Positions 12,192 through 51,160 of a stretch of DNA of 61,904 nt are shown one piece after another. The stretch spans positions 1-61,904 of the forward strand of contig JALVQN010000211.1 of assembly GCA_027025555.1 (NCBI GenBank). The letters run 5' to 3'. Within the stretch, counting starts at the first letter, position 1. The number at the start of each line of letters is the position of its first letter. Source of the stretch: Desulfobacterales bacterium (GTDB lineage Bacteria > Desulfobacterota > Desulfobacteria > Desulfobacterales > UBA2156). The notes under the pieces are model-generated. The model was given only the letters and a program-made list of their open reading frames with translations, did not search any database and was not told the origin of the DNA. A program made the translations under genes and the position numbers.

Positions 12192-13780
12192 GACTTCACG
12201 AGATAATTGCGCATCATGCCCATGTCCTCATGTTCTAAATTGTGGCAGTGGTAGAGGAACAGGCCCGGGTAATCGTCGAAGCCGACCAAGATTTTGACGC
12301 TTTCACCGGGCATCAGGAGGACCGTGTCTTTCCACCCCGCATCCACGTAGCCTTCGTGCCGTAACCCGCTGCGTGCCAGGACCCGGAATTGCTTGCCGTG
12401 CAGGTGCATGGGATGGGGCGTTTGCATCATCGGCATCATGCCGCCTCCGGTGTTATGAAACTCCCAGATTTCCCGGGAACCCAACCGAACGATCTCGTCA
12501 CCCGCCACATCTTCCATCTGAAATACCCGCCCGTTGATGGACCATTGCATGTGTCGCCCGGTGAGATGGAATCGTCGCGGACGATGGACATTGTCCGCCA
12601 GGTCCGGACGGGGAGGCTCAATCTCTGCAAGCCTGGGCGGCAGCGTGGAGCGCTTCTTCACTTTTTGCGTCACCTTGATTTTGAAGACGGGAAATCGGGC
12701 GCCAAGCAAAAGGGTTTGGCGTGTCCCCCTTCTCCCGGACATCCTCATCCCCCGGCCCATGCGGCCGCTTCCCATTGGCCCGCCGTCAAAAGGAAGGCTC
12801 ACGAGGGCGCTTTCATATCCCACCGGCGCCCCGCTGAAATCCCTCCAGAGTTCGATACGTTCGCCCGGGGCCAAAAATACATAGGCACGGGAAACCGGCT
12901 TTTCAAGGAGGCCTCCATCCGTGCCGATGACGGTCAGGGGCCGGCCGTCTCCCCATGCCAGGCGAAAGATCCGAGAGTTGGAGCCGTTTAACAGGCGCAA
13001 CCGGTAGGCGGTGGTTGATACGGGCAATGTAAAATCGGGCATGCCGTTGATCAGGATCGAATCGCCCAAAAAACCGGTCATCTGTTCCATCCCATGTCCT
13101 GAGAGGTATACCAGCTGGTTGTCGCCGTCAAAGGTGCGATCTTGAATGACCAAAGGCACGTCATAGCCCCCGTCGGGCAACCCCAGGGATCGCTCTTCTT
13201 CATCGGAAACAAGCAAAAGGCCGGCCAGACCTTGATAAACCTGGACCCCGGTGCGTCTGTGGGGATGCGGATGATACCAATAGGTGCCGGCGCGGTTCTT
13301 CACTTCAAACTCATAGAGATAGGACCGGCCGGAGGGAACCACAAAGCGTGGATGGCCATCCATGATGGCAGGCACATGGAGGCCGTGCCAATGGATAATC
13401 GATTTTTCGAAAATGGCGTTTTCAAAACGGATCCGTATTTTCTCGCCCTGACGCACTTTAATGACGGGTCCCAGATAGCTTTCGGGAAGTGGCACCACCC
13501 GGGATTGATCCCCCTTGTGAACCATGGCGTCGTAGCGCCAAATCCGCGTTCGCTCTCCGGGGAAAAGGGCCAGTTCATCGGGGTGGGCCGTCATGGAAAT
13601 ATCCAGATCCGGAATGAACTTTTTCTTTGAAGCGGTGTTGGGATTTCGTGCAGCAGCAAGAGGATCAAGAAAAGGCAGAAAGCTGCCGGTCATCAAACCC
13701 AGTGCGCCGAAGCCGGCCAGTTTCAGAAATTGCCTTCGATCCTTTTCGGTTTTCATCCGCAAGCGCGTGGCGTTTTTCAT
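12188..13780 (-). CDS. TAT-exported multicopper oxidase
   Basis: Twin-arginine signal (DRRQFLKLAGFG). Copper motifs IHWHGLH, WYHPHPH, HPMHLHG and HCHNLEHEDMGMM. Start moved to MKNATR (13780) because the -24/-12 element overlaps the upstream ATG at 13831. Confidence 0.85.
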   Translation of the reverse strand: MKNATRLRMKTEKDRRQFLKLAGFGALGLMTGSFLPFLDPLAAARNPNTASKKKFIPDLDISMTAHPDELALFPGERTRIWRYDAMVHKGDQSRVVPLPESYLGPVIKVRQGEKIRIRFENAIFEKSIIHWHGLHVPAIMDGHPRFVVPSGRSYLYEFEVKNRAGTYWYHPHPHRRTGVQVYQGLAGLLLVSDEEERSLGLPDGGYDVPLVIQDRTFDGDNQLVYLSGHGMEQMTGFLGDSILINGMPDFTLPVSTTAYRLRLLNGSNSRIFRLAWGDGRPLTVIGTDGGLLEKPVSRAYVFLAPGERIELWRDFSGAPVGYESALVSLPFDGGPMGSGRMGRGMRMSGRRGTRQTLLLGARFPVFKIKVTQKVKKRSTLPPRLAEIEPPRPDLADNVHRPRRFHLTGRHMQWSINGRVFQMEDVAGDEIVRLGSREIWEFHNTGGGMMPMMQTPHPMHLHGKQFRVLARSGLRHEGYVDAGWKDTVLLMPGESVKILVGFDDYPGLFLYHCHNLEHEDMGMMRNYLVKS

Positions 13781-13839
13781 GGGTCTCTCCCCTGGCAAAA
13801 AGTTGTTAATTTTAATTTTCCTGTCGCACACCCCAAAAG

Positions 13840-13855
13840 AGCAAACTGCATGCCA
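13840..13855 (-). promoter_or_regulatory. sigma54 (-24/-12) promoter candidate for the multicopper oxidase
   Basis: The minus strand reads TGGCATgcagtTTGCT with canonical spacing, about 60 nt upstream of the ATG at 13780. Confidence 0.55.
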
Positions 13856-31276: not shown

Positions 31277-33532
31277 TTATTCCGGAAAGGCCTCCCCGGA
31301 GTTGACGGTTACGGGTTTGAGCTTTGCGATGGCTTTCAGCATGAAAAGGAGCAACGCCCCGGATCCGATGATGATGAGAAAGTCCGGAATTATCCGGGTC
31401 TGGCCGAGGAACTGGACCATGTCCTTTTGCCAGAATGCGTTGGAGCGGGCATGCCAGAATCCATATCGAATGTTGTCCAGGACATGGAGAATGCCGTTGG
31501 GCAACAGTGTGCCGGCGAACATGATGAACAGGCCGATGTTGGTTCCCCAGAACGCCACCTTTAAAAGCTTGGTGTTCCAGCCTTCATCGGTAACCAGGCC
31601 CCGCATGGAGAACAGAAGGAGACCGATGGCCAGCAGGCCATAAGTGCCGAACAGGGCGGTGTGGCCGTGGTTCACGGTGAGATAGGTGGCGTGCTCGAAG
31701 TAGTTGACCACCGGGGTGGTAATGGAGAGCCCCATCACGCCTGCGCCCAAAAACTCCCAGGCCACCGACGCCATGAGGAACATGAGGGGATAGCGGTAAG
31801 GAAAGTTGCTTCCCGCTTTCACCAGGGCCTTTTGGCTGTGCCAGACTTCTGCCAGCAAAAGTAAAATGGGAACCGGTTCCAAAGAGGAAATGGTGGAACC
31901 GAGCGCCAGCCAGAAGGACGGTTCCCCGAACCAATAGTAATGATGGCCCACACCGATGATACCGGAAGAAAGGGCCAGGGCCACGGTGAAATAAACGGTC
32001 CGGAGCCCTGCTTTCAGTTCCACCAGGCCGAGGTTCACCATCACGAAGACGATGGCCGCTGCAGCAAAGAACTCAAAGGCGCCTTCCACCCAGGTGTGCA
32101 CCACCCACCACCGCCAGAAGTCCGCGATGGTGAGATGGGTTTTGGGGTTGTAAAAGAGGCCGAAACAGAAAAAGCCCACCACCGCAATGCCGGAATAGGT
32201 CAGGAAATGGGGCAGGCCCCACTTGTCCTGGCCGGCGGCGAAGTGGCCTTTCAAGGCCCGAACCACCAAGAAAAGCCAGATGACCAGGCCCACCAGGAGG
32301 AGAATCTGCCAGAGCCTGCCGATCTCAAGGAATTCCCACCCCTGATGCCCCAGCCAGAACCAGAGGTCCCCGATGAGGCCTTTGATGCCCAGCACTTCAC
32401 CCACAAGGCTTCCCAGGGCCACCACCACCACGGCCACAAAGAGGACATCCACCAAAAACCCCTGGCCTTTCGGCTCTTTCCCGCCCACACGCGGTGCCAC
32501 GAAAAGGGTCATGCCGATCCAGGCCGTGGCGATCCAGAAGACGGCCAGCTGGAGATGCCAGGTCTTGGCCCAGTTATAGGGAATGAACTTGGCGATGGTA
32601 TCAAAACCGTAGAAGGAATCCGGATGCACCGTGTAATGGGCCATCAGTCCCCCCATGTTGACCTGGAGGAAGAAAAGTGCCGCCACCACCAGGAAGTATT
32701 TGGCGGTCTTTCTCTGGCTGGGGGAGATCCCGGCCGCTGCCAGGGCCTGGGCCGGTTCAGGCTGATACGGCAGAGCCCCCCGGTTGAACTGGTACTTGTG
32801 ATAGAGGAAGATCATGAGCCCCAGGCAGACGCCGAAGGCCACCAGGGAAATGGCGGACCACACCAGGGATTTTCCCGACACCCGGTTTCCCACATCCGGA
32901 TCGTGGGGCCAGTTGTTGGTATAGGTATGATCGTCGCCGGGACGGGTGGTTCCGGCCGCCCATGCGGTCCAGAAGAAAAAATCGGCCAGGTCCGTAAGCT
33001 CCTGGGAGTCCTGGATGGTTCCGGCCCGGATGGTGCCGCCCTTTTCGCCGTAAGTAAAAAGGGCATCATAAAACTTCCGGTTCTCCATGAAGGCGTATTC
33101 CTGGAGGGGAGTGAGGGTCAAGGTGTCTGTATGCTTATCATAGGCATTGGTTTTGATTTGCCGGATGACCGTGGCGTCCACGGCGCCCTTGACATGGTCT
33201 TCCAGGCTCGGATAGGGGGCCTTATACTTGTCTTGGGCCAGCTTTTCCCGCATGGTGATGCCCATGTTGTGGAGCGCCTGGGCTGTAAAGTCGGGCCCCC
33301 GGTAGGTGCCGTGGCCCCAGACGCTGCCCAGGTCCATGAGCCCGTACTTTTGCCAGACGCTTTGGCCGGACAAGATGTGTTCCCTGTCCGTCAAGACCGT
33401 GCCTTTTGTTGAGATCACCTTCCCGGGATAGGGCGGCAGGTCCTTGGTGGTGAAAAAGTACCCGATCAGTGCCACCGCAATGGCCCCGAAAATGGCGATG
33501 AGAAAATAGTTGCGAAGCCCTTTGCTGATCAT
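31277..33532 (-). CDS. norZ: quinol-dependent nitric oxide reductase (qNOR, NorZ/NorB-long)
   Basis: About 750 aa. N-terminal TM plus a periplasmic extension, then a 12-TM haem-copper-oxidase-like core (WGHGTY, VNHGHTALFG, GVGHHYYW). Start set at MISKGL (33532), behind an AAGGAGG RBS. Confidence 0.9.
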   Translation of the reverse strand: MISKGLRNYFLIAIFGAIAVALIGYFFTTKDLPPYPGKVISTKGTVLTDREHILSGQSVWQKYGLMDLGSVWGHGTYRGPDFTAQALHNMGITMREKLAQDKYKAPYPSLEDHVKGAVDATVIRQIKTNAYDKHTDTLTLTPLQEYAFMENRKFYDALFTYGEKGGTIRAGTIQDSQELTDLADFFFWTAWAAGTTRPGDDHTYTNNWPHDPDVGNRVSGKSLVWSAISLVAFGVCLGLMIFLYHKYQFNRGALPYQPEPAQALAAAGISPSQRKTAKYFLVVAALFFLQVNMGGLMAHYTVHPDSFYGFDTIAKFIPYNWAKTWHLQLAVFWIATAWIGMTLFVAPRVGGKEPKGQGFLVDVLFVAVVVVALGSLVGEVLGIKGLIGDLWFWLGHQGWEFLEIGRLWQILLLVGLVIWLFLVVRALKGHFAAGQDKWGLPHFLTYSGIAVVGFFCFGLFYNPKTHLTIADFWRWWVVHTWVEGAFEFFAAAAIVFVMVNLGLVELKAGLRTVYFTVALALSSGIIGVGHHYYWFGEPSFWLALGSTISSLEPVPILLLLAEVWHSQKALVKAGSNFPYRYPLMFLMASVAWEFLGAGVMGLSITTPVVNYFEHATYLTVNHGHTALFGTYGLLAIGLLLFSMRGLVTDEGWNTKLLKVAFWGTNIGLFIMFAGTLLPNGILHVLDNIRYGFWHARSNAFWQKDMVQFLGQTRIIPDFLIIIGSGALLLFMLKAIAKLKPVTVNSGEAFPE

Positions 33533-33608
33533 GGCAACCTCCTTTTTTGAAAGGTTTGAATGCATTGCGCTTTTTCCGCCCCAGTGCCCATGACGCCCTG
33601 GTCGCGGT

Positions 33609-39881: not shown

Positions 39882-41249
39882 TCAAGCGCGGAATCGATTC
39901 GCCTGGATTCCGTATTTTTTCATGCGGTTCCATACCGTGACCCGGCAGACACCCAGGATCCGGGCCGCCTGAGACTGGTTTCCTTTGGCCTCCCGGAGCG
40001 CTTCAATGAGCGCTTCCTTATCTTTAAAATCATTTTCTTTTTTGGCCCCTGCACCCTTTCTTTTGTCAACGGGTTGCTTGGGGAGGTGCTCCAGGGTCAG
40101 GGGCCCCTTGTCGGCCAAAACAAAGGCGTACTCCAGGGTGCTTTTCAGCTCCCTGACGTTTCCCGGCCAGGAATATTCCATGAGGGCCTCCATGGCCGCG
40201 CGGTGAATCCCGGTGACCGGCTTTTGGGTCTTTTCTTGAAGTCGGCGGATGAAGGTATCCACCAAAAGGGGAATGTCTTCAATGCGTTCCCGCAACGGGG
40301 GCAGGTGAATGGGAATCACGTTGATGCGGAAAAAAAAGTCTTCCCTGAAGAGGTTCTGTTCGATCAATGCCGCAAGGTTCTTATTGGTGGCCGTGATGAT
40401 CCGGACATCCACGGGAATGGGGCGATGATCCCCCACCCGCTCGATTTGTTTGGATTCCAGCACATTGAGCAGTTTGACCTGAACGGAAAGGGGCACATCC
40501 CCGATTTCATCCAGGAAGAGATCCCCGCCATGGGCCGCCTCGAACCGGCCGAGGCGATGGCGGTAAGCCCCGGTAAACGCCCCTTTGATGTGCCCGAAGA
40601 GTTCGCTTTCCAAAAGGGACTCATTCAATGCCGCACAGTTGAGCTGGATGAAAGGGCCCTCCCGTCGCGTTCCCAGCCGGTGGATGGCTTGGGCCACCAA
40701 GTCCTTCCCGGTGCCGCTCTCTCCGTACACAATGACCGGCGCATCACTGCGGGCCGCCCTTTGGATCATTTCAAAGACCTGTTTCATGGCAGGGGATTTC
40801 CCCACAATCCCGCAGAATTGGTCCCCACATTCCAGCTGGCGGGAAAGCTGTTCGATTTTTTCATCCAGACGGAATACTTCCGAAATATCGGTGAAGGTTT
40901 CCACGGCCCCCAGCGTCTTGCCGTCGGGCCCGGTCAGAAGGGAGGCGTTTTTGAGGATGTGGAGGTAACCGCCATCCTTTTTGATGATGGCACACCGTTT
41001 TTTATCCTGTTCGCCATGACGGAACAGGGCGCACCAGTTGTCATTTTCCTTTGTTCGGAAGGTTTCGCAGGCGTCACATCGCAGCAGGGTGCACGGCCTT
41101 CCGATGACTTCTTCGGCACGGTATCCCGTGAGGCGTTCAAACGCCTCGTTGATCATGAGGATGGTCCCATCGGTACCCACCACCAGGAGCCCCTCATTCA
41201 AGGTGTTGATGATTTGCTCCAGGTAGCGATTGATTTCCGTTTCATTCAT
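39882..41249 (-). CDS. sigma54-dependent activator with N-terminal PAS domain
   Basis: PAS domain (LNEGLLVVGTDGTILMINEAFERLTGY) with several Cys. Walker A (GESGTGKD), GAFTGA motif and a C-terminal Fis-type HTH. Divergent from the TusA operon. Confidence 0.9.
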   Translation of the reverse strand: MNETEINRYLEQIINTLNEGLLVVGTDGTILMINEAFERLTGYRAEEVIGRPCTLLRCDACETFRTKENDNWCALFRHGEQDKKRCAIIKKDGGYLHILKNASLLTGPDGKTLGAVETFTDISEVFRLDEKIEQLSRQLECGDQFCGIVGKSPAMKQVFEMIQRAARSDAPVIVYGESGTGKDLVAQAIHRLGTRREGPFIQLNCAALNESLLESELFGHIKGAFTGAYRHRLGRFEAAHGGDLFLDEIGDVPLSVQVKLLNVLESKQIERVGDHRPIPVDVRIITATNKNLAALIEQNLFREDFFFRINVIPIHLPPLRERIEDIPLLVDTFIRRLQEKTQKPVTGIHRAAMEALMEYSWPGNVRELKSTLEYAFVLADKGPLTLEHLPKQPVDKRKGAGAKKENDFKDKEALIEALREAKGNQSQAARILGVCRVTVWNRMKKYGIQANRFRA

Positions 41250-41384: not shown

Positions 41385-41400
41385 TGGCATCAATCTTGCT
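41385..41400 (+). promoter_or_regulatory. sigma54 (-24/-12) promoter candidate
   Basis: TGGCATcaatcTTGCT with canonical spacing. The predicted start site near 41410 excludes the ATGs at 41360 and 41405 and favours the ATG at 41438. Confidence 0.6.
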
Positions 41401-41437: not shown

Positions 41438-41665
41438 ATGGTTTCAAGAACGAAGATCGATCTCATCGGCAATGCCCGGCCCATTTGCCTTTTAAAGTGT
41501 AAAAGCACCTTAAATCAAATGAATACCGGGGACACCTTGGAGGTCTTGCTGGGGGATCCCGGAGTGGTCCACGAACTGATCGCCATTATCAACCGCTCTT
41601 CGGACCGGGTGGTCCAATGGGTGCAGGAGGGGGATCACTTCAGGATCCAGATTGAAAAGGGATAG
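41438..41665 (+). CDS. TusA/SirA-like small sulfur-carrier protein (non-canonical Cys motif)
   Basis: 75 aa. GNARPICLLKCKSTLNQMNTGDTLEVLLGD...RIQIEKG has TusA-like length and layout, but the Cys context is PICLLK rather than CPxP. Confidence 0.6.
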   Translation: MVSRTKIDLIGNARPICLLKCKSTLNQMNTGDTLEVLLGDPGVVHELIAIINRSSDRVVQWVQEGDHFRIQIEKG

Positions 41666-41691: not shown

Positions 41692-42633
41692 ATGGAAATC
41701 AACAGACGATCCTTTCTCAAATTTTCCGGTGCGTTGGCGGCCGGCTCCGCGCTGAAGCCCACCGTTGTCCATGGGGGAAAGCCTCCAGCGCCGCCTGAGG
41801 ATGCCTTGGGATGCCTGGTGGACACCACCCTTTGTGTGGGATGCAGGAAGTGTGAACAGGCCTGCAACGCGCGTCACCATCTTCCCAAGCCGAAGGAATC
41901 CTTCGAAGAGATGACCGTTTTGGAAAACGAACGGCGGATGGACGAGACGTCGTACACGGTGGTGAACAAATACTACCCCAAACAGATCGGCACCCTCACC
42001 TGGCGGACCCGGCCCACCTTCGTCAAGTTCCAGTGCATGCATTGCAATGATCCTTCCTGTGTGTCGGCATGTATCGTGGGGGCCCTCACCAAGCAGGAGA
42101 ACGGGGCCGTGATCTATGATCCGAAAAAGTGCATCGGGTGCCGCTACTGCATGGTGGCATGTCCTTTTCAGGTCCCGGCCTATGAATACCGCAATGCCCT
42201 GACCCCCCAGGTGAGGAAGTGCACCTTTTGTTTCCAGTATGTGAAAGAGGGGGGGCTCCCGGCCTGTGCCCAGGTGTGTCCCAGGGAGGTGATCACCTTC
42301 GGCAAAAGGGCCGATTTGCTGCGCCTGGCCAAGTGGAAGATGAAGAGCAACCCGGGCAAGTATGTGGATCATATCTACGGGGAAAAGGAGGTGGGAGGGA
42401 CCTCGTGGCTCTACCTGGCCTCCGAACCCTTTGAGTCCATCGGCTTTCCCAAGCTCGGGACCAAAGCCCCGCCGAGACTCACGGAATCCATTCAGCACGG
42501 TCTTTTTCAATATTTTGCGGCGCCCATCGGCCTGTACGCACTTTTGGGAGGGATCATGTGGTTTACCGGTTACCTGAAACATTCCCACCGGGGCACCCCC
42601 CAAGAGACCCATGAGAAAGGAGACGCATCATGA
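41692..42633 (+). CDS. TAT-exported 4x[4Fe-4S] ferredoxin-type subunit (HybA/DsrO/NrfC family) with C-terminal TM anchor
   Basis: Signal peptide INRRSFLKFSGALAAG. Cys clusters CVGCRKCEQAC, CMHCNDPSCVSAC, CIGCRYCMVAC and CTFC...CAQVC. C-terminal helix APIGLYALLGGIMWFTGYL. Confidence 0.85.
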   Translation: MEINRRSFLKFSGALAAGSALKPTVVHGGKPPAPPEDALGCLVDTTLCVGCRKCEQACNARHHLPKPKESFEEMTVLENERRMDETSYTVVNKYYPKQIGTLTWRTRPTFVKFQCMHCNDPSCVSACIVGALTKQENGAVIYDPKKCIGCRYCMVACPFQVPAYEYRNALTPQVRKCTFCFQYVKEGGLPACAQVCPREVITFGKRADLLRLAKWKMKSNPGKYVDHIYGEKEVGGTSWLYLASEPFESIGFPKLGTKAPPRLTESIQHGLFQYFAAPIGLYALLGGIMWFTGYLKHSHRGTPQETHEKGDAS

Positions 42634-45600
42634 ACCTCCATGAAGAGGCCGCTCCGGTTCAAGAGAAGTTCCTGACCCCCGGGGTCATGGTCCTGCTGGG
42701 CGTCATGGGCGTGGGTGCCGCGTTTATCCTTACCCGCTTCCTTTTCGGCATCGGGAAGGTGGCCAACTTGAACAACCAGTTTCCCTGGGGCATCTGGATC
42801 GGCATCGATGTGGCTTCCGGCGTGGCCCTGGCCGCCGGCGGCTTCACCACCGGCGCCATCGCCTATGTCTTCAACCGGGACCAGTTTCATGCGGTCATTC
42901 GGCCGGCCCTGCTCACCGCCATGCTGGGCTATACGTTTGTGGTCCTGGGACTGGTGGTGGATATCGGAAGATACTGGAATATCACCAGCCCTGTTTTTCA
43001 TCATAACGGCAACTCGGTCCTTTTCGAAGTGGCCATGTGCGTGATGATCTATCTCCACGTCCTTTATATCGAGTTCATCCCCATTGTGGTGGAACGCTTC
43101 AAGGGCCGGGTGGCCCTGCCGGGGCCCCTTGCCGTCCTCAACGGGCCCATCGAGGCCCTCCTCGGCTTTGCCGACAAGGTCCTTTCCAAGATCATGTGGG
43201 TCTTCATCATCGCCGGGATCGTCCTTTCCTGCCTGCACCAATCCAGCCTGGGGTCTTTGATGCTGATCGCTCCGTACAAGGTCCATCCCTTGTGGTACAC
43301 GCCCATCCTGCCCCTCCTTTTCCTGCTGAGCGCCTTTGCCGCCGGCTATCCCATGGTGGTCTTCGAATCGATCCTCGCCGCCAAATCGTTCGACCGGCGA
43401 CCCGAGATGGAGGTGCTCACCCCCCTTGCCCGGTACATGCCGGTGCTCATGGGGCTCTACCTCGTTTTCAAGCTGGGAGACATGGTGGCCCGCGGCACGT
43501 ATGTGTATCTGCTCGACGGCACCTATCAGACGAATTCCTTCATCGTGGAGGTTCTCTTCGGCGTCATATTCCCTTTTGTGTTGTTGTTGTTCAAAAGGGT
43601 GCGGAAGTCCGCGGGATGGCTCTTTTTCGCCTCCACGCTCTGGGTCCTGGGCATCTTGTTGAATCGCATCAATGTCTTCGTGGTCAGTTATACCCCTCCC
43701 TATAAAATCGTATCCTATTTTCCGGCCCTGGGAGAGGTGTTCATTACGGCGGGCCTGATTTCCGGGCTCATGTTCCTGTATCGGGTCTTTGTGTTCATCT
43801 TCCCGGTGCTGGGGAAACAACCGAAAAAGATGTCTCCCACGGCCCTGGGCATGGTCATTGTCATGGGGGTCATGGTCTTCAATGGAAGGGCCCTGGGAAA
43901 GGAAATGGATGCGGCCTCCAAGCGTCCCATGACCCTTCACGCTGCCTCGGTGCCCTCCATCAAGGACGCCCCCAAGGTTTTCATCCTCGAAAGCGCTGTG
44001 ATTAAGAAATACAGCGACCTGTACGAACCGGTGCGGTTTATGCACAGCAAGCATGCCAACGTGCTGGGGGATTGTTCCATCTGCCACCACCGGATGCCCC
44101 GGGAAGAAGGAGACACGTACGGCGCACCGGTGAAAATGGAACAGCTTCGGGCCATGAAAAAGGTGCCGGTGGCATGTTCGGTGTGTCATGGGGATCCCTT
44201 TAATCCCAGACAACTCCAGGTGCCGGGGCTGAAGGGCGCCTATCACCGGCTTTGCATGGACTGCCACAAAGAGGCCGAACAGGTTCCCCATGTGCGGGGT
44301 CCGGTGTTGTACAGCGCCATGGTCCGGGGGCCCGTGGCCCGCACTTTGGACACCCGGGCCCCCACGGATTGTTTGGCCTGTCATGCCAAGAAGGTGCCGG
44401 ACCACACGAAACTGGTGACGCTTGAGGGACAGGTGGACGCCCAGGCCGTGACGAAAAATTGCCTTTCCTGTCATCGAGCCGAAGGCGAGGCCCTCTTGAA
44501 GACTTCCCATTGGAAATGGCGGGGTCCCTCCCCCTACACCATCGGCCACGAAAAACGCACCGATCTGGGGAAACACTCCAATACCATCAACAATTTTTGT
44601 ATCAACCTCAACGGCAACTGGCCCCGCTGCACCTCCTGTCACATCGGATACGGCTGGAAGGATGCCGACTTTGACTTCAAGGATATGTCGAAGATCGACT
44701 GCCTGGTGTGCCACGACACCACCGGCACCTACAAGAAGGCCCCGGCGGGTGCGGGATTTCCGAAAAAGGACGTGGATCTGGTGAAGGTGGCCAAACACGT
44801 GGGCCGGCCCAGCCGGGCCACCTGCGGCATGAACTGCCATTTCAGGGGCGGCGGCGGACCCGGGGTCAAGCACGGGGAATTGGGCCCGACCCTCCTGATG
44901 GGGACCTCCCAAAACGACGTCCATATGGGTGTGGACAGGAAAGGGATGAATTTCAAGTGCCAGGATTGTCACAAGACCCGGAACCATATGATCTCCGGGA
45001 GAAGCATTTCCATTCCGGCTTCGGAAGGGGACCTGTCCTGCGAGTACTGCCATACGGACCGCCCGCATATCGGGGCCGATCCGGTGGACCATCATTTGAA
45101 CCGGCATACCAAGCATGTGGCCTGCCAGACCTGCCATATCCCCCTTTATGCCAAAAATGCCCCCACCAAAATCTACTGGGATTGGTCCACCGCGGGTCAG
45201 GACCGGAAAGTGGAAAAGGATCCATACGACATGCCCACGTATCACAAGAAAAAGGGGAGCTTTAAATGGAAACAATCGGCCAAGCCCAGGTACTTTTGGT
45301 ACAACGGCACCGTGAAACGCTATGTGCTGGGGGATCGCATCAACGAAAAGGGGGTTACGGAGCTGACCAAGCCTGTGGGAAGCCCGGCGGATCCGGCATC
45401 CCGGATCTACCCCTTCAAGATCCATTCCGGGAAACAGATCAGTGATGCCGTGTACAAATATTTGATTACCCCCAAGCTTTACGGAGGGTTTTGGAAGCAC
45501 TGGGACTGGGATAAAGCAGCCAGAGACGGCATGGCGGCGGCGGGGTTGAAATACAGCGGCGAATATGAGTTCGTGGATACGGTCATGTACTGGGGGTTGA

Positions 45601-45902
45601 CCCACGAGGTCCTTCCCAAAGAGGAGGCCCTTTCGTGTGCCCATTGTCACCGGTCCCTCTCAAAAGCGCCCTACTGCGGCCGGTGCCACCAGGAAGCGCC
45701 GGGACAGGATTTCAAGAAGTTGGCCACCAGGGGGATCGACTTTAAGGCCCTGGCCGAGCAGGGCAAGGACGTGGCGGCGCTCATCGGGACCACCGATTAT
45801 CTCGATTTTAAGGCCCTGGGATATGCCGGGGATCCCGTCGAGACAGGGGGCCGGTTCAAGACATTGCCGTTGAGCCGCCGCCAGGTCACCGCGTTAAAAT
45901 AG
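42630..45902 (+). CDS. fusion protein: NrfD/PsrC-type polytopic membrane module plus a 13-haem periplasmic cytochrome c (tetrahaem c3-like region plus octahaem tetrathionate-reductase-like region)
   Basis: 1090 aa. The first roughly 400 aa are polytopic and NrfD-like. The remainder carries 12 CXXCH motifs and one CX3CH (CGMNCH). The central part (SHWKWRG, CTSCHIGYGW, CLVCHDTTGTYKK, HFRGGGGPGVKHG) resembles OTR-family octahaem cytochromes. Its ATG overlaps the upstream stop (ATGA). Confidence 0.85.
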   Translation: MNLHEEAAPVQEKFLTPGVMVLLGVMGVGAAFILTRFLFGIGKVANLNNQFPWGIWIGIDVASGVALAAGGFTTGAIAYVFNRDQFHAVIRPALLTAMLGYTFVVLGLVVDIGRYWNITSPVFHHNGNSVLFEVAMCVMIYLHVLYIEFIPIVVERFKGRVALPGPLAVLNGPIEALLGFADKVLSKIMWVFIIAGIVLSCLHQSSLGSLMLIAPYKVHPLWYTPILPLLFLLSAFAAGYPMVVFESILAAKSFDRRPEMEVLTPLARYMPVLMGLYLVFKLGDMVARGTYVYLLDGTYQTNSFIVEVLFGVIFPFVLLLFKRVRKSAGWLFFASTLWVLGILLNRINVFVVSYTPPYKIVSYFPALGEVFITAGLISGLMFLYRVFVFIFPVLGKQPKKMSPTALGMVIVMGVMVFNGRALGKEMDAASKRPMTLHAASVPSIKDAPKVFILESAVIKKYSDLYEPVRFMHSKHANVLGDCSICHHRMPREEGDTYGAPVKMEQLRAMKKVPVACSVCHGDPFNPRQLQVPGLKGAYHRLCMDCHKEAEQVPHVRGPVLYSAMVRGPVARTLDTRAPTDCLACHAKKVPDHTKLVTLEGQVDAQAVTKNCLSCHRAEGEALLKTSHWKWRGPSPYTIGHEKRTDLGKHSNTINNFCINLNGNWPRCTSCHIGYGWKDADFDFKDMSKIDCLVCHDTTGTYKKAPAGAGFPKKDVDLVKVAKHVGRPSRATCGMNCHFRGGGGPGVKHGELGPTLLMGTSQNDVHMGVDRKGMNFKCQDCHKTRNHMISGRSISIPASEGDLSCEYCHTDRPHIGADPVDHHLNRHTKHVACQTCHIPLYAKNAPTKIYWDWSTAGQDRKVEKDPYDMPTYHKKKGSFKWKQSAKPRYFWYNGTVKRYVLGDRINEKGVTELTKPVGSPADPASRIYPFKIHSGKQISDAVYKYLITPKLYGGFWKHWDWDKAARDGMAAAGLKYSGEYEFVDTVMYWGLTHEVLPKEEALSCAHCHRSLSKAPYCGRCHQEAPGQDFKKLATRGIDFKALAEQGKDVAALIGTTDYLDFKALGYAGDPVETGGRFKTLPLSRRQVTALK

Positions 45903-45961: not shown

Positions 45962-46294
45962 ATGTTCAAAAAAGGGGCAATCATTTTCTTGGCAGTGTTG
46001 TTGGTGGGGGTTTACATCGGCCTGGTCTTGGCGGCCGAGAAGAAGGGGAATGATCGAAAAGGAAAGTATCTTTTCCGGAAAAATTGCCGGTCTTGCCACG
46101 TGGAAGGGGGCAGTGCAAAGGAGCTCAGCCCGGTGAGCAAGACCCAGGCCGAATGGGAGAAGGCGTTTAAGGAGTACGAAAGCCTTTCCTGCAAGGACGA
46201 GTGGCGCAAACTTTCCGATCAGGACAGACTCGACATTTTTACTTATCTTCATGAGCATGCATACGATTCGCCGTCCCCCATCAAGTGCAGTTAG
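45962..46294 (+). CDS. membrane-anchored monohaem cytochrome c
   Basis: 110 aa with an N-terminal hydrophobic helix and a single CRSCH motif. Confidence 0.7.
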   Translation: MFKKGAIIFLAVLLVGVYIGLVLAAEKKGNDRKGKYLFRKNCRSCHVEGGSAKELSPVSKTQAEWEKAFKEYESLSCKDEWRKLSDQDRLDIFTYLHEHAYDSPSPIKCS

Positions 46295-46342: not shown

Positions 46343-48535
46343 ATGGCCAAACGATCCCAAAGAGCGGTGAGCCGCCGGGGATTCCTGAAGGCTTCCACGG
46401 CGGCGGCCGCGGCGGTGTCCCTGGGAAGGGGAAAGGTGCTCCATGCCCTGGTACCCGCCGGGAAGGCGACGCCCAGGACAGGGCCCAAAGATGTGTATTC
46501 GGCTTGCGACATGTGTTTCAACAAATGCGGCCTGATCGCCCGGGTGGATGATTTGGGGGTGGTTCGAAAACTCGATCCCAACCCCAAATTCCACAAGTCC
46601 CGGGGGATGCTGTGTGCCCGGGGGAATGCGGGCGTCCGGCAGCTTTATGATCCGGATCGCCTGAAATATCCCCTGTTGAGGAAGGGCAAGCGGGGAGAGG
46701 GGCGCTGGCAACGCCTTTCATGGGATCAAGCCCTGGATTATGCCGCCGAAAAGCTCCAAGCCATCGGTGAGAAGTATACCCGTTGCGGTGTCCTGTTCAT
46801 GGCCGGCACCGACCTGCAATCCCAGTTTGTCCATCGATTTGCCGAGGTGTTCGGCTCATACAACGTGATTTCCCATGAAAGCAACTGTCTTTTGAGCCGA
46901 AACCGCGCTTTTTTGGATACCTTCGGGGAGGTGCCCGTCCCGGATGTTTTGAATTGTAAATATCTGATCATGGCCGGCGCCAACCGGTTTGAAGCCCTTG
47001 TGACCCCGGACAGCATCGACCTGATGACCGCCTTAAAAAAGGGGAGCAAGCTGGTGGTCCTCGATCCTCGGTTCACCAAGACCGCAGCCCTGGCCACCGA
47101 GTGGCATCCCATCCGGCCGGGGACCGACATGGCCTTTTTTTTGGCCGTGGCCCATGTGCTCATTGAAGAAGGCCTTTACGATAAAGCGTTTGTGGCCCAA
47201 AAGACCTTTGGATTCGAAAGGCTTGCCCCCCACATCAGGCAGTATCCGCCGGAATGGGCCGAAAAGGAGTGTGAGATTCCGGCAGCCCACATCCGGCGGA
47301 TCGCCAGGGAACTGGCGGCGGCGGCACCGGCGGCCATGGTCTATCCGGGAAGACGCAGTTCGGACTACGAGAATTCCACCCAGATCCGCCGTGCTTTCGC
47401 CATCGTCAACGCCCTGTTGGGGAATTGGGACCGTCCCGGGGGACTGACGGTCGCCCGCAAGGTCCCCTTGAAGAAGCCCCCCTATGATGCGCCTTTCTAT
47501 GAAGACAATCCGGACGGCCGGATCGATGAAGGCAGGTCTCTCATGATGTTCGGGGAAGAGGGGTCCTTCAAGCATGCCCGGGATGCGGTCATCGAAGGAA
47601 AGCCGTATCCGGTCAAGGGATTCTTCACGTACAAGACGAATCCCATGCAAACGGGCGCCAACCGAAAAAAGACGGTCCGCATGATCGAGACGCTCGATTT
47701 CATGCTCACCGTGGATATCGCCATGAGCGATACGGCGTGGATGGCCGACCTGGTCCTCCCGGCGCCCAGCTACCTGGAACGCCGAGATCCCGTATCGGCG
47801 TTGCAGGGAGCCTCGGCGTGCGCCTGTGTCATCACACGGGATCCGGTGGTAAAGCCCCTGTTTGAGGCCAAACCGGTGGTGTGGATCGTCGGCGAACTGG
47901 CCAAACGTTTGGGGCTGGGGGAATTTTTCGATTTTACCATGGATGCGTATCGAAAGGCCCAGTTGAAGAAGCTTCCCGGTGCCGAGGCGGCTTTGAAAAA
48001 AGACGGCGTGTACCATCACCCCGGAAAGCTCTACGGGGTCTATGAGGGCAAGCCTTTCAAGACCCTTTCCAAGAAGATCGAGTTGTACAACCAGCGTTAT
48101 GAAAAAGCCGGGATCGACCCCATGCCGGTCTATCGCCCGCCCAAACCGGTGCCCGACGGGCATTTCCGGCTGGTGGTGGGGCGCAGCGCGTATATCACCC
48201 AGGGATCGACCACCAATAATGTGCTTCTTCACGAACTCGTTCCCGAAAACACCTTGTGGCTTCACCCCAAACCGGCGCGTCGGCTCGGCATCCGACCCGG
48301 CGACTGGGTGGTGGTCTCCAGCAACGTGGGAACCCAGAGGCTGAAAGTCCGGGTCACCGAGGAAACAAGGGAAGATACGGTCTATATGGACTCAGGCTTT
48401 GGGGTCCTGTCCAAGGGCCTCACCCGCGTTTTCGGCAAAGGCGCCAGCATCGTGGAGATTCTGGAAGATTTCAATGATGAAATCTCCGGGAACATGGCCA
48501 TGCACGAGACCTTCGTCACCGTGAAACGGGGCTAA
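46343..48535 (+). CDS. TAT-exported molybdopterin oxidoreductase catalytic subunit, PsrA/PhsA/TtrA-like
   Basis: Signal peptide VSRRGFLKASTAAAAAVS. N-terminal FeS motif CDMCFNKCG...C. About 730 aa MopB architecture with a conserved Cys in HESNCLLSRN. Confidence 0.9.
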   Translation: MAKRSQRAVSRRGFLKASTAAAAAVSLGRGKVLHALVPAGKATPRTGPKDVYSACDMCFNKCGLIARVDDLGVVRKLDPNPKFHKSRGMLCARGNAGVRQLYDPDRLKYPLLRKGKRGEGRWQRLSWDQALDYAAEKLQAIGEKYTRCGVLFMAGTDLQSQFVHRFAEVFGSYNVISHESNCLLSRNRAFLDTFGEVPVPDVLNCKYLIMAGANRFEALVTPDSIDLMTALKKGSKLVVLDPRFTKTAALATEWHPIRPGTDMAFFLAVAHVLIEEGLYDKAFVAQKTFGFERLAPHIRQYPPEWAEKECEIPAAHIRRIARELAAAAPAAMVYPGRRSSDYENSTQIRRAFAIVNALLGNWDRPGGLTVARKVPLKKPPYDAPFYEDNPDGRIDEGRSLMMFGEEGSFKHARDAVIEGKPYPVKGFFTYKTNPMQTGANRKKTVRMIETLDFMLTVDIAMSDTAWMADLVLPAPSYLERRDPVSALQGASACACVITRDPVVKPLFEAKPVVWIVGELAKRLGLGEFFDFTMDAYRKAQLKKLPGAEAALKKDGVYHHPGKLYGVYEGKPFKTLSKKIELYNQRYEKAGIDPMPVYRPPKPVPDGHFRLVVGRSAYITQGSTTNNVLLHELVPENTLWLHPKPARRLGIRPGDWVVVSSNVGTQRLKVRVTEETREDTVYMDSGFGVLSKGLTRVFGKGASIVEILEDFNDEISGNMAMHETFVTVKRG

Positions 48536-48572: not shown

Positions 48573-49220
48573 ATGAAAAGCAAGCCTCATAAAAAATATG
48601 CCATCGTCATCGACACCTTCAAGTGTTTCGACTGCAAGGCATGCATGATCGCCTGTAAGGTGGAAAACAATGTCCCGGAGGGGTTCTGGCGGAACTGGGT
48701 CCGCCACACCGGAGGTGTCAAAGGCAGGCGCACCCAGTTTCAGCCCGGGCAGTGCATGCAGTGTGACGCACCTTCCTGTGTGGCGGCCTGCCCGGTGGGG
48801 GCCACCTATAAACAGGAAGACGGTCTGGTGGTCATCGATCCGGCAAAGTGTATCGGGTGCGGCAACTGTGTGACGGCATGCCCTTATGGGGCGCGCTACA
48901 GGAATCCCCTCAGCCATACGGCCGACAAGTGCGACTTTTGTGAACACCGCCTCAAACGGGGGGAAGAACCGGCCTGTGTGATCACCTGTCCCACCAAGGC
49001 CCGCATTTTCGGAGACCTCAACGATCCTGAAAGCCGGGTCAGCCGGTTGATGAAAGAGGAACGGCTGGTCCAGGTGATCAATCCCGTGTTCGATACCCGA
49101 CCGAACATCTATTATTGGGCCGGAACCCGCCTTCTGGACTGGCCCAAAATCCCCACCCTGCCGGGCGGGGTTCACATGCCGAAGGCGTTCTGGAAGACTC
49201 CCATGGAAGAACGGACCTGA
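48573..49220 (+). CDS. 4Fe-4S dicluster electron-transfer subunit, PsrB/PhsB-like
   Basis: Cys clusters CFDCKACMIAC, CMQCDAPSCVAAC, CIGCGNCVTAC and CDFC...CVITC. 215 aa. Confidence 0.9.
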   Translation: MKSKPHKKYAIVIDTFKCFDCKACMIACKVENNVPEGFWRNWVRHTGGVKGRRTQFQPGQCMQCDAPSCVAACPVGATYKQEDGLVVIDPAKCIGCGNCVTACPYGARYRNPLSHTADKCDFCEHRLKRGEEPACVITCPTKARIFGDLNDPESRVSRLMKEERLVQVINPVFDTRPNIYYWAGTRLLDWPKIPTLPGGVHMPKAFWKTPMEERT

Positions 49221-49257
49221 GCCGGACCACAACCCTAAAAAGAAAGGAGCTTACGTC

Positions 49258-50388
49258 ATGAGACGATGGAAAGGCACCCTTTGGCTGCCGCTGGCGGCCC
49301 TGGTGGTGGGCGCATTGCTCATGGGGTGCGCCGCCCCCCAAAAGACGGCAACCCCGGCAAAAGCAAAGCCCGAGTGGTGGTTCCACGACACGGTGAACAT
49401 CGACTTCGTGAAACAGTATGCCGTGATGCCCCAACCCAAGGGTGTCATGATCGTCGATGCCCGGCCGAAAAGGGCCAAGTACGACAAGGGGCACATTCCC
49501 ACGGCCGTCAGCATTCCGGCCAGGCAGTTCGACAAGTTCAAGGATCGGCTGCCCAAGGATAAGAAGACCCTTTTGATCTTCTACTGCGGGGGCCCCACCT
49601 GAAAGCTGAGTCATCAGGCCGCCAGGAAGGCGGTCAAGCTGGGATACACCCAGGTCAAGGTCTTTGCCGACGGTTTTCCGGCCTGGGAAAAAGACCCTGA
49701 AACCTATACGGTCGTGGAAATCAGTTGGCTTTTGGAAAAGATGAAAGCCAGGGTCCCCATGACCCTCGTCGATGCCCGGCCCAAGCGCGCCAAATATGAC
49801 AAGGGCCATATCCCGGGTGCCGTCAGCATTCCGGCCAGGCAGTTCGACAAGTTCAAGGATCGGCTGCCCAAAGACAAGAAAGCCCTCTTGGTCTTTTATT
49901 GCGGAGGCTATACCTGAAAGCTGAGTCATCAGGCCGCCAGGAAGGCGGTCAAGCTGGGATACACCCAGGTCAAGGTCTTTGCCGCCGGATACCCGGCATG
50001 GAAGAAGGCGGCGGCTGCAACGGCCGCCCCCGCACCGGTTACGATTAAAACCGGCACCGCCGAGGGCACCATTGACATCGCCTCTTTCGAAAAGATCCTG
50101 TCGGAAAATCCCAACAGCATCTATCTCATCGATGTCCGGGATCCGGAGGAATACAAGGCGGGCCATTTCAAGACGGCCGTCAATATTCCCGTGGATGATC
50201 TGGAAAAACAGATCAAGACACTGGCTGCGGACAAACCCATCGTCTTTGTTTGCGCCACCGGCGCCAGGAGCGGCGAATCCTTTTACATGGTTAAGGATCT
50301 TCGCCCTGATATCAAGGAGGTCTATTTCCTGGATGCCGAAGTGACCTATAACAAAGACGGATCCTATCGCATCAAAGCGCCCCAGTGA
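49258..50388 (+). CDS. periplasmic lipoprotein with three rhodanese domains; two in-frame TGA codons (49600, 49915) interpreted as selenocysteine
   Basis: AAAGGAG RBS and an LLMGC lipobox. ORF-track pieces 49258..49602, 49714..49917 and 50191..50388 share one frame. No other stops lie between them. Domains 1 and 2 read FYCGG(P/Y)T-TGA-KLSHQAARKAVKLGY. Domain 3 has an ordinary CATGARS loop. Confidence 0.7.
49617..49635 (+). other. candidate bacterial SECIS hairpin 1
   Basis: GGCCGCC-AGGAA-GGCGGTC (7-bp stem including one G-U pair) begins 14 nt after the TGA at 49600-49602. It lies inside a 73-nt stretch (49597-49669) that is repeated exactly. Confidence 0.45.
49932..49950 (+). other. candidate bacterial SECIS hairpin 2
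   Basis: Identical hairpin 14 nt after the TGA at 49915-49917. It lies inside 49912-49984, the exact copy of 49597-49669. Confidence 0.45.
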
Positions 50389-50424
50389 GGTATGAGGTCT
50401 GCCTCCCTCATTCCTCCCTTCCCA

Positions 50425-50462
50425 CCGAGACCCCTGGTCCGATCCGGTACCCGGGGTCTCGG
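50425..50462. terminator. 10-bp GC-rich hairpin between convergent genes
   Basis: CCGAGACCCC (50425-50434) pairs with GGGGTCTCGG (50453-50462). No clear T-tract. Sits between the rhodanese stop (50388) and the TorD-like stop (50489). Confidence 0.35.
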
Positions 50463-50488
50463 CCCTCCCCTGATCCTTTTCGGATCGC

Positions 50489-51160
50489 TCACGGGAGGTC
50501 GGTAGCGTTTGCAGGCGTGACAGCCGAAATAAACTGTAAAAAGGACAGAAGGATTGAGGCGGACAATCCATAGAAGGGACAGCCCGTTTCTCCTTCATTG
50601 AGTCTTGCAGTGACGACCGAAACCCATGGCAATAAGGCGCTCCGGGTAAAGGCTGCGGCTTCTTCCAGAAGATCCCCCCGGGAGCTCATCCATCCCTGCT
50701 CCAGGAGAAAGTAGAGATACTCCAGCTGGATGCACAGGTGGTCGGGCGGTTCCGTGCGGTCCTGGGCCACATCCAGCCCGGCCCCGGCCAGCCGTTTCTT
50801 CATTTCCACGGCCGGAGGTCCCATCATCAAGGCCTCTTCGCCCTCGTAACAAGAAGCGTACAGATAAGCGGAAAGAGGCCCCTTCCGATTCACGAAGAGC
50901 CGGACATAGGCCTCTTCCAAGTGCCCGAAGAGTAAATCAGGCTCTGAAAAGGCGTGGATTTCCTGTTGCGCGAGAGAAACGGCGTCGCGGGGAGAATAGG
51001 GGATATCGGCCTTCAACCGCACAAAGGGCGCCCACCAGCGGGAATCCAGGAGTGCTTTGCAAAAAAAGGGGTCAGGCCCCCAGAAGACGGCGCACATCTT
51101 GGAGAGGCCATCGAGGAAATCGGAGGGTCCTCCGGGAGTGGAAAAGCGTGCCTTTTTCAT
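50489..51160 (-). CDS. TorD/DmsD-family redox-enzyme maturation chaperone
   Basis: 223 aa. Family-like segments (EAYVRLFVN, PPDHLCIQLEYLYFLL). Convergent with the molybdoenzyme operon. Confidence 0.75.
   Translation of the reverse strand: MKKARFSTPGGPSDFLDGLSKMCAVFWGPDPFFCKALLDSRWWAPFVRLKADIPYSPRDAVSLAQQEIHAFSEPDLLFGHLEEAYVRLFVNRKGPLSAYLYASCYEGEEALMMGPPAVEMKKRLAGAGLDVAQDRTEPPDHLCIQLEYLYFLLEQGWMSSRGDLLEEAAAFTRSALLPWVSVVTARLNEGETGCPFYGLSASILLSFLQFISAVTPANATDLP

Follow-up and report, generated by a model that had tools for sequence, protein, structure and literature searches.

A HybB/NrfD-type membrane module and a 13-haem, OTR-family cytochrome in one open reading frame of a Desulfobacterales bacterium: a candidate quinol-linked reductase

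In this study, we analysed a stretch of 61,904 nucleotides (nt) from a Desulfobacterales bacterium (contig JALVQN010000211.1 of assembly GCA_027025555.1, positions 1 to 61,904 of the forward strand), which is called the window below. The subject is one long open reading frame (ORF) at 42630-45902, in which a quinone-interacting membrane module of the NrfD type is followed, in the same frame, by a multihaem cytochrome whose core belongs to the family of octahaem tetrathionate reductase (OTR). This fusion ORF had been picked out by a first examination of the letters (the sequence-only reading), and we compared it with its relatives in public genomes and protein collections. The core of the locus consists of the following features, with residue numbers referring to the fusion product.

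41692-42633, + strand: HybA/HmcB-like iron-sulfur (FeS) subunit exported by twin-arginine translocation (TAT), with four FeS-cluster motifs and a C-terminal transmembrane (TM) anchor (Pfam TAT_signal, Fer4_11)
42630-45902, + strand: fusion ORF, 1090 codons open throughout, product of 1090 amino acids (aa)
42630-43817, + strand: HybB/NrfD-type quinone-interacting membrane module, residues 1-396, ten TM helices, both ends of the module cytoplasmic
43821-43901, + strand: 11th hydrophobic helix (helix 11), residues 398-424, signal-peptide-like, reading PKKMS, then ALGMVIVMGVMVF, then NGRALG, with K as the next residue
43992-44399, + strand: c3-type tetrahaem domain, residues ~455-590, haem motifs at C482, C516, C542 and C581 (Pfam Cytochrome_C7, E=1e-14)
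44400-45656, + strand: OTR octahaem domain, residues 591-1009, haem motifs at C611, C667, C691, C732 (CX3CH), C777, C804, C832 and C1003
44571-44600, + strand: putative active-site loop, with the K648 codon at 44571-44573 and the C657 codon at 44598-44600
45657-45902, + strand: C-terminal extension with the 13th haem motif, C1016-G-R-C-H, and a conserved tail, DFKALGYxGDP..GGRF

The domain order of the product is a HybB/NrfD-type module of ten helices, the 11th hydrophobic helix, the c3-type tetrahaem domain, the OTR octahaem domain and one extra haem. The predicted mass is 121 kDa, or ~129 kDa with 13 haems. The ATG of the fusion overlaps the TGA of the FeS gene upstream (ATGA; ..CATCATGAACC..). 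The sequence-only reading had proposed translational coupling to a TAT-exported FeS subunit; the overlap is seen, and the TAT_signal match and the four FeS-cluster motifs are found in the upstream gene. The predicted topology has 11 TM helices with the N-terminus inside and the C-terminus outside, so that the residues after ~425 are periplasmic. Hydropathy, the positive-inside rule and the AlphaFold2 model (mean predicted local distance difference test, pLDDT, 67; below 50 around residues 647-661) agree on this topology, and the further TM helix that had been expected behind the NrfD module is helix 11. Attachment of c-type haem requires the periplasm, which matches the side predicted for everything after ~425.

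An NrfD-like module had been claimed for the first roughly 400 residues, and the model search and the pairwise comparison both bear this out. Pfam NrfD (PF03916) covers residues 44-354 with 85.9 bits (cutoff 25.8, E=5e-24), and E. coli HybB aligns from end to end with 34% identity (E=8e-71). Among the NCBIfam models, the HybB model NF008133 reaches 350.7 bits, below its cutoff of 450, and HmcC reaches 276.6 bits, below its cutoff of 550. Judging from the score below the cutoff and from the lack of hydrogenase genes nearby, the module is HybB-like, not HybB. The NrfD fold was taken as two four-helix bundles with eight core TM helices, to which the HybB, ActC and NhcC types add two. Single-sequence and profile searches of the PDB gave nothing useful for the membrane module, and the fold search and the HybB comparison were the informative ones. 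In Foldseek, the membrane part of this model of moderate quality matches ActC (8k9e_C, 6btm_C, 6lod_C and 6f0k_C; E=8e-9 to 2e-7, TM-score to target ~0.55) and also ActF of alternative complex III, the ActC and ActF matches together ranging from E=8e-9 to 2e-4. Replacement of HybB R89, Y99, E148 or H184 impairs Hyd-2 (Lubek 2019, as cited in PMC8076601). The residues aligned with them, R91, Y101, E148 and H203, are invariant in 82 sequences, and the membrane module looks functional on that ground.

The FeS subunit gives the same picture. It scores 338 bits with HmcB (cutoff 420) and 260.9 bits with HybA (cutoff 263), both below the NCBIfam cutoffs, and E. coli HybA aligns over the full length, including the C-terminal anchor, with 34% identity (E=8e-60). 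Its gene adjoins the NrfD module in every related locus that is complete at that end. By these comparisons, the membrane and FeS pair is specifically HybB/HybA-like.

A motif scan of the cytochrome part found 12 CXXCH motifs and one CX3CH motif, 13 haem motifs in all. They are invariant in 82 relatives of the clade that we call A below, except for one substitution at H781 (81/82), and this conservation is far beyond chance. The sequence-only reading had also arrived at 13 haems, divided into four c3-like motifs, an octahaem core and two further motifs. Its number is right, but the true tally is 4 + 8 + 1, with C1003 as OTR haem 8. The motif listing stands for the 12 CXXCH motifs and has to be corrected for the fourth OTR motif, C732-G-M-N-C736-H (44823-44840). 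The CX3CH form occurs in 79 of the 82 clade A sequences and the canonical CXXCH form in the other 3/82; it results from an insertion of one residue relative to CGSCH of the Shewanella OTR. The c3 assignment rests on the Cytochrome_C7 match and on a family profile, which matches the C-terminal domain of HmcA (1z1n residues 428-545, 2e84 residues 445-536) and the last domain of the nine-haem cytochrome NhcA (1duw and 19hc, residues ~180-273). The OTR-like core was confirmed by TIGR04315, which gives residues 591-1009 a score of 523.8 bits (cutoff 375; model positions 2-429 of 440). Of the family searches that had been proposed, those for NrfD and for OTR are both above their curated cutoffs. PDB entry 1SP3 aligns at E=7e-135 with the eight haem motifs in register, and the TM-score of the OTR domain against 1sp3 in Foldseek is 0.82, normalised to the target. 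The C-terminal extension is present in some stand-alone OTR homologues too (for example P0128).

The fusion is common among relatives. A protein cluster search gave full-length homologues with 68-82% identity, and at least 120 clusters of ~1065-1113 aa (one partial, 990 aa) with the same domain set were listed from NCBI, JGI, ENA and Logan. Among representatives at 50% identity, there were a handful of further full-length fusion clusters at 42-48% identity, and also numerous OTR or HybB-like proteins that stand alone, together with further HybB::cytochrome fusions, including ones of 546-797 aa (P0123, P0134, P0141, P0177 and P0246). A locus scan in which each GTDB species was represented by one genome gave no fewer than 596 related loci; the best 79 were analysed, of which 75 could be classified and 72 had a readable Cys657 motif. 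All 75 classifiable loci keep the FeS gene, the membrane module and a cytochrome of 13-14 haems side by side, the latter two being fused in 38 and split in 37. Fused loci occur in Desulfobacterota, Myxococcota and Acidobacteriota. The relatives fall into three clades.

Clade A: fused; 67-84% identical to the query, by domain; Desulfobacterales, Desulfarculaceae, Desulfocarbo indianensis and the Olavius Delta-4 symbiont
Clade B: two genes; Desulfatibacillum alkenivorans, Desulfobacter curvatus, Desulfosarcina alkanivorans, Desulfotignum and Desulfovibrionales
Clade C: fused; 40-54% identical to the query; Myxococcota, Acidobacteriota/Thermoanaerobaculia, Aminicenantes and others

One outlier of clade A (L025) has 54% identity in the OTR domain. 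In neighbour-joining trees of both halves of the protein, A and B are sisters and the fused lineages of clade C lie outside, although the rooting is weak. Because of this position of clade C, the fused state may be ancestral and the split secondary. A sequencing or assembly frameshift that joins two genes artificially had been named beforehand as what could undo the fusion, and the parts are indeed separate genes in half of the related loci (clade B), lying a few bases apart or overlapping by ATGA. However, a continuous ORF of the same make-up occurs in 38 independent assemblies from several phyla, as well as in the clusters listed above, and the junction region is alignable and conserved. With this recurrence we consider the artefact excluded, its remaining probability being negligible.

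Whether the single ORF also yields a single mature chain is a different matter, and here the claim of one polypeptide is secure for the gene and insecure for the protein. Helix 11 looks like a signal peptide, and the mature protein may therefore be cleaved in two. In clade A, the helix has an n-region PKKM(S/T) with a Met, 13-16 hydrophobic residues and a small-x-small site; a strict AxA stands at its end in 51 of the 82 clade A sequences, and the surrounding stretch is otherwise poorly conserved. Helix 11 is, in our reading of these alignments, what carries the cytochrome to the periplasm. One translated chain could then be cut by signal peptidase behind helix 11, at about G424 and K425, giving a HybB-like subunit of ~47 kDa and a periplasmic 13-haem cytochrome of ~82 kDa. 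The clade A segment has every mark of a general secretory signal peptide, and the cytochrome gene of clade B begins exactly at the position of helix 11 with a signal peptide of its own, cleavable or with a lipobox. On the other hand, the c-region in the window (..VMVFNGRALG before KEM) is less canonical than that of most relatives, and in clade C helix 11 is longer and lacks the AxA motif, so that it probably remains a membrane anchor there. We consider cleavage of the window's protein to have nearly an even chance. Such a cut would touch only the claim of a single polypeptide, and it is compatible with every functional reading discussed below. Bradyrhizobium offers a known example: the fbcH gene encodes a quinol-oxidising membrane protein and a c-type cytochrome in one ORF with an internal signal sequence, at which the cytochrome b-c1 precursor is cleaved. 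The fusion resembles FbcH in its one-ORF layout; the protein families are different, and cleavage, which is proven for FbcH, is only suspected for the fusion.

The putative active-site loop of the OTR domain bears on its function. G647-K648 is invariant in 82/82 clade A sequences, and C657, in an NNFC motif, is found in 80/82. We take K648 to be the counterpart of the haem ligand Lys56 of OTR and C657 to be the counterpart of Cys64; in the work of Mowat et al. (2004), Lys56 is reportedly a remote lysine that ligates the active-site haem, and Cys64 is likewise said to have a role there. The pairwise alignment sets G647-K648 one residue off Gly55-Lys56, beside a one-residue insertion. Across the 72 readable loci, Cys657 aligns with TGC or TGT in 40 cases, with TGA in 31 and with CTC in 1, and the window's own protein has Cys at this position. 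Every such TGA is followed, 16 nt downstream, by a hairpin common to them all, GCAACGAG-GCU-CUCGUUGC, which resembles a selenocysteine insertion sequence (SECIS). The OTR genes of the TGA type lie in the split-gene relatives, with L048 (~10974; Desulfosarcina alkanivorans PL12) as an example from L046-L081 and 30 other loci, and automatic ORF calling ends these homologues after five haems. Selenocysteine at a catalytic redox position is typically recognised by just such a UGA in frame, with a conserved hairpin behind it and Cys in its place in homologues. These split-gene relatives therefore appear to be selenocysteine-containing OTR homologues. They may already be catalogued, as the word 'octaheme' occurs once in a 2026 selenoproteome review (PMC13188914). 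The alternation of Cys657 with UGA, together with the invariant K648, argues for a catalytic OTR domain; a haem chain that serves only as a passive wire would hardly be expected to show it. The domain identities, the topology, the conservation, the gene linkage and the alternation of Cys and selenocysteine are established by these comparisons.

The fusion lies within an operon whose other genes and control elements are listed below.

39882-41249, - strand: divergent single-component σ54 enhancer-binding protein with PAS, σ54 AAA+ and Fis-type helix-turn-helix domains (Pfam Sigma54_activat, E=1e-69; PAS; HTH_8)
41385-41400, + strand: σ54-type promoter TGGCAT-N5-TTGCT (-24/-12), between the activator gene and the operon
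41438-41665, + strand: TusA-fold protein of 75 aa, first gene of the operon (Pfam TusA, E=8.6e-12)
45962-46294, + strand: monohaem cytochrome c of 110 aa with signal peptide (Pfam Cytochrome_CBB3, E=3e-7)
46343-48535, + strand: TAT-exported PsrA/PhsA-like molybdopterin oxidoreductase (Pfam Molybdopterin, Molydop_binding, Molybdop_Fe4S4)
48573-49220, + strand: PsrB/TtrB/NrfC-like protein with four FeS-cluster motifs and no signal peptide
49258-50388, + strand: lipoprotein with three rhodanese domains and two in-frame TGA codons, 49600-49602 and 49915-49917
50489-51160, - strand: TorD/NarJ-type chaperone, probably for the molybdoenzyme, also in other clade A loci (Pfam Nitrate_red_del, E=2e-22)

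The σ54 activator stands at the identical divergent position in most related loci, and the window holds 2 matches to the -24/-12 pattern against 0.10 expected by chance. The TusA gene is found at the equivalent position in related loci. At the CPxP site its product reads 'GNARPICLLKC', that is 'RPIC', with Arg first and the Cys shifted by three residues. We take CPxP to be the canonical TusA motif and its Cys to be the catalytic position, and the protein of this operon may not be a standard sulfur carrier. Clade A loci keep the monohaem cytochrome c, which may precede or follow psrAB. The molybdoenzyme scores 560 bits with PhsA, below the cutoff of 694, and its best PDB match is PsrA of T. thermophilus (2vpw, E=1e-128). 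There is no psrC or phsC gene in the operon, and the fusion is the only NrfD-type module nearby. The two TGA codons of the rhodanese gene sit in FYCGGxT[TGA]KLSH, each with a GCCGCC-AGGAA-GGCGG hairpin ~18 nt behind it; seven other loci have these codons and hairpins as well, with TGC (Cys) in place of the codon in one instance. The lipoprotein is probably a rhodanese with a Cys-x4-selenocysteine active-site loop. An ORF of 506 aa on the opposite strand (49078-50598, - strand) is internally repetitive and has no family matches, and we regard it as an antisense shadow of the rhodanese repeats, not a gene. The set of TusA, cytochrome c, PsrAB-like and rhodanese genes is conserved across clade A and absent beside the core in clades B and C. 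At one locus (L038, 5713-7536), a 607-aa NrfD::c3 protein without an OTR domain is followed by cytochrome c, psrAB and rhodanese genes, which suggests that the quinol module and the c3 domain can serve the molybdoenzyme on their own.

We lean towards the view that the fusion product and its FeS subunit form a menaquinol-linked periplasmic reductase, most probably for a sulfur compound. The neighbouring genes for TusA, the PsrA-like and PsrB-like proteins and the triple rhodanese with its UGA codons point to sulfur. The direction of electron flow, the nature of the substrate, the link to PsrAB and the persistence of the product as one chain are what we infer. Menaquinol would be oxidised at the HybB/NrfD-type module, which has conserved proton-path residues and no redox cofactor of its own, and the electrons would pass to the HybA/HmcB-like FeS subunit with its four cluster motifs at the periplasmic face. 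From there they would enter the c3-type tetrahaem domain, held at the membrane by helix 11, and run along the OTR haem chain to the haem ligated by Lys648 (motif C667-T-S-C-H). Cys657 would assist the reduction of a small oxidised substrate, which could be an S-S compound of the tetrathionate or polysulfide type or sulfite. In clade A, the quinol module would probably also feed the PsrAB-like molybdoenzyme of the thiosulfate/polysulfide type through the haem wire and the monohaem cytochrome c, the periplasmic rhodanese lipoprotein with its two predicted selenocysteines would handle sulfane sulfur, and the PAS-domain σ54 activator would switch the operon on. If the PsrAB-like enzyme splits thiosulfate, a sulfite-reducing OTR domain could complete a periplasmic path from thiosulfate to sulfide.

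Several points weigh against this proposal. The AlphaFold2 model is mediocre as a whole (mean pLDDT 67), with confidence <50 at ~647-661. Because the sister clade and the basal clades have neither psrAB nor rhodanese genes beside the core, the sulfur context belongs to clade A only. OTR itself has no proven physiological role; Shewanella sp. ANA-3 does not need it to respire tetrathionate, and the suggestion has been made that it reduces sulfite instead (PMC12949373). Moreover, the HybAB, Nhc and Ohc modules are usually drawn with electrons moving from a periplasmic donor to the quinone (PMC4641369, PMC8076601). This last point leads to the main functional rival, in which the locus collects electrons in the manner of Hmc, Nhc, Ohc or Qrc. 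The 13-haem domain would pass electrons to the FeS subunit and on to menaquinone at the HybB-like module, and the donor would be cytochrome c3, a hydrogenase, a formate dehydrogenase or a substrate oxidised by the cytochrome itself, for example thiosulfate. The homology of the c3 domain to the last domain of HmcA and NhcA fits this direction, as does the HybA/HybB-like character of the FeS and membrane pair, since the pair of Hyd-2 reduces quinone (PMC8076601). The Ohc system of D. vulgaris, described as running from OhcA to OhcB to OhcC, has a divergent σ54 activator as here (PMC4641369). Nevertheless, K648 is invariant and Cys657 is exchanged for selenocysteine in 31/72 loci, and a pure wire gains nothing from a costly selenocysteine. 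The core also has no linked gene for a hydrogenase or a formate dehydrogenase, although oxidative catalysis by the OTR domain would still be compatible with all of this. We hold electron collection to be rather unlikely.

The other functional rival is a quinol-linked nitrite or hydroxylamine reductase serving detoxification or ammonification, with sulfur genes that are unrelated or only loosely coupled. The in vitro activities of OTR would favour it, as nitrite and hydroxylamine reduction are the most prominent ones and tetrathionate reductase and thiosulfate oxidase activities are very low (PMC12949373). But nothing nitrogen-related is linked to the core in the 79 loci, and clade A ties the core to TusA, PsrAB and rhodanese. 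A catalytic Cys or selenocysteine beside a haem fits chalcogen chemistry, as in the selenoprotein MccSep compared below, and we know of no nitrite reductase that needs a Cys or selenocysteine beside its haem. We regard this alternative as improbable. Returning to a menaquinol-linked reductase for a sulfur compound, a bolder version can be put forward only tentatively, and we are doubtful of it as a whole. The locus would then encode a self-contained, energy-coupled quinol:sulfur-compound oxidoreductase in which the OTR haem and the adjacent Cys or selenocysteine cleave or reduce an S-S compound or a sulfur oxyanion; this would give OTR a physiological role and a HybAB-type donor, and the fused gene would be ancestral and later split.

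Complexes of an NrfD-type subunit, an FeS protein and a multihaem cytochrome are already known, such as MccACD, NrfABCD, Nhc/Hmc and Ohc. The sequence-only reading did not recognise the architecture as a described complex. We likewise found no paper on an NrfD::OTR fusion, or on an OTR operonic with a HybAB-type module and a c3 adaptor, within a literature to which our access was incomplete, and the words 'fused', 'octaheme' and 'Otr' are absent from a 2021 review of NrfD subunits. The kind of complex, on the other hand, is not new. As the parts are separate genes in half of the relatives and complexes of this kind are known, we regard the fusion as a variant, not as a new class.

The nearest system in architecture is MccACD/SirACD of Wolinella and Shewanella, a quinol-linked periplasmic reductase with NrfD-type, four-cluster FeS and catalytic octahaem subunits, which acts as a quinol:sulfite oxidoreductase (PMC8076601). 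As in OTR, its N-terminal module holds the five-coordinate haem (PMC9250108). The likeness is one of architecture only, because the cytochrome here belongs to the OTR family, and no MccA-family match was found for it in Pfam, NCBIfam or the PDB. The membrane and FeS subunits here are HybB/HybA-like with 10 TM helices, unlike MccD with 8 (PMC8076601), and MccACD differs further from the fusion, which has a c3 adaptor, a 13th haem and the cytochrome within the ORF of the membrane subunit.

Hmc and Nhc share an HmcB-like FeS protein (338 bits), an HmcC-like membrane subunit (277 bits) and the c3 domain, which corresponds to the last tetrahaem domain of HmcA and NhcA. Unlike in these systems, a catalytic-type OTR domain takes the place of further c3 domains, the gene order differs and the genes are fused. 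Membership in Hmc itself was rejected, with HmcB at 338 (cutoff 420), HmcC at 277 (550) and HmcA at 66 (400) and no hmcDEF-like genes nearby. The E. coli HybA and HybB proteins, closest in sequence among the named systems, resemble the pair here in full-length identity (34% for both), in the key HybB residues and in the TAT signal and C-terminal anchor of the FeS protein. Membership in a hydrogenase was rejected as well, since no hydrogenase genes are linked, the HybB score is below its cutoff (350.7 bits < 450) and the partner is a multihaem cytochrome. The Ohc membrane protein is reportedly annotated as a hydrogenase b-type cytochrome subunit, which would make it HybB-like. The Ohc system (ohcBAC, DVU3143-3145, Desulfovibrio vulgaris) combines an FeS protein, an octahaem periplasmic cytochrome and a membrane protein in a σ54 operon with a divergent activator (PMC4641369), and the comparison is one of composition and regulation, not of the OhcA sequence. 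It differs in having separate genes in the order B-A-C, 8 haems in OhcA instead of 13, and a described delivery of electrons toward the membrane protein, unlike in the reductase proposed here. Ten OTR-like representatives that were looked up had generic names and included no Desulfovibrio vulgaris entry.

The OTR of Shewanella oneidensis (1SP3) shares ~50% identity by eye (41% in Foldseek), the eight motifs, the GK and NNFC motifs and the fold with the OTR domain here. It is soluble, stands alone and is thought to be fed by CymA (PMC12949373), whereas here a c3 domain and a quinol module precede the OTR domain and a ninth haem follows it; one motif is CX3CH here, and relatives have selenocysteine at the position of Cys64. 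The chemistry may parallel that of MccSep, a selenocysteine-dependent pentahaem polysulfide reductase of Geobacter (2026), in which haem sulfur chemistry likewise goes with an active-site selenocysteine or Cys and both types coexist in the family (PMC13510729). MccSep belongs to an unrelated family with five haems, forms a tetramer and has a Cys-ligated haem; no homology to it was detected here.

OTR-family octahaem cytochromes are common, yet two decades after the structure there is still debate about which substrate they act on physiologically and what donates their electrons (PMC12949373). Here OTR is tied to a HybAB-type quinol module through its genes, and often through a covalent link as well, which offers a handle on its function. 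Clade A adds the link to a Psr-like molybdoenzyme, rhodaneses and TusA, and the predicted active-site Cys alternates with selenocysteine, so that quinol-dependent reduction of a sulfur intermediate becomes a testable hypothesis. Cultured hosts exist for the fused form (Desulfocarbo indianensis) and for the split form (Desulfatibacillum, Desulfosarcina, Desulfobacter). If the self-contained reductase were real, the role of OTR would lie in the respiration of sulfur intermediates by sulfate reducers and other anaerobes. With this family, the modular NrfD-type respiratory complexes also gain a fused representative, and fusing a HybB-type module to cytochromes seems to be a broader theme. The family is, moreover, a natural case of a signal peptide becoming, or ceasing to be, a transmembrane linker. 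The fusion is widespread and apparently undescribed. In public databases its members are named 'Ni/Fe-hydrogenase cytochrome b subunit' or 'tetrathionate reductase family octaheme c-type cytochrome', and the former label is misleading.

Some further observations concern the rest of the window. The second exact σ54 match lies at 13840-13855 on the - strand (TGGCATGCAGTTTGCT), directly upstream of a multicopper oxidase gene (12188-13831, - strand), and a GAF-domain σ54 activator is encoded at 3693-5258 (- strand). Another fused respiratory enzyme of this region, a quinol-type nitric oxide reductase in which NorB is joined to a cytochrome c-like domain, has its gene ~9 kb upstream (31277-33565, - strand) and is unrelated to the operon.

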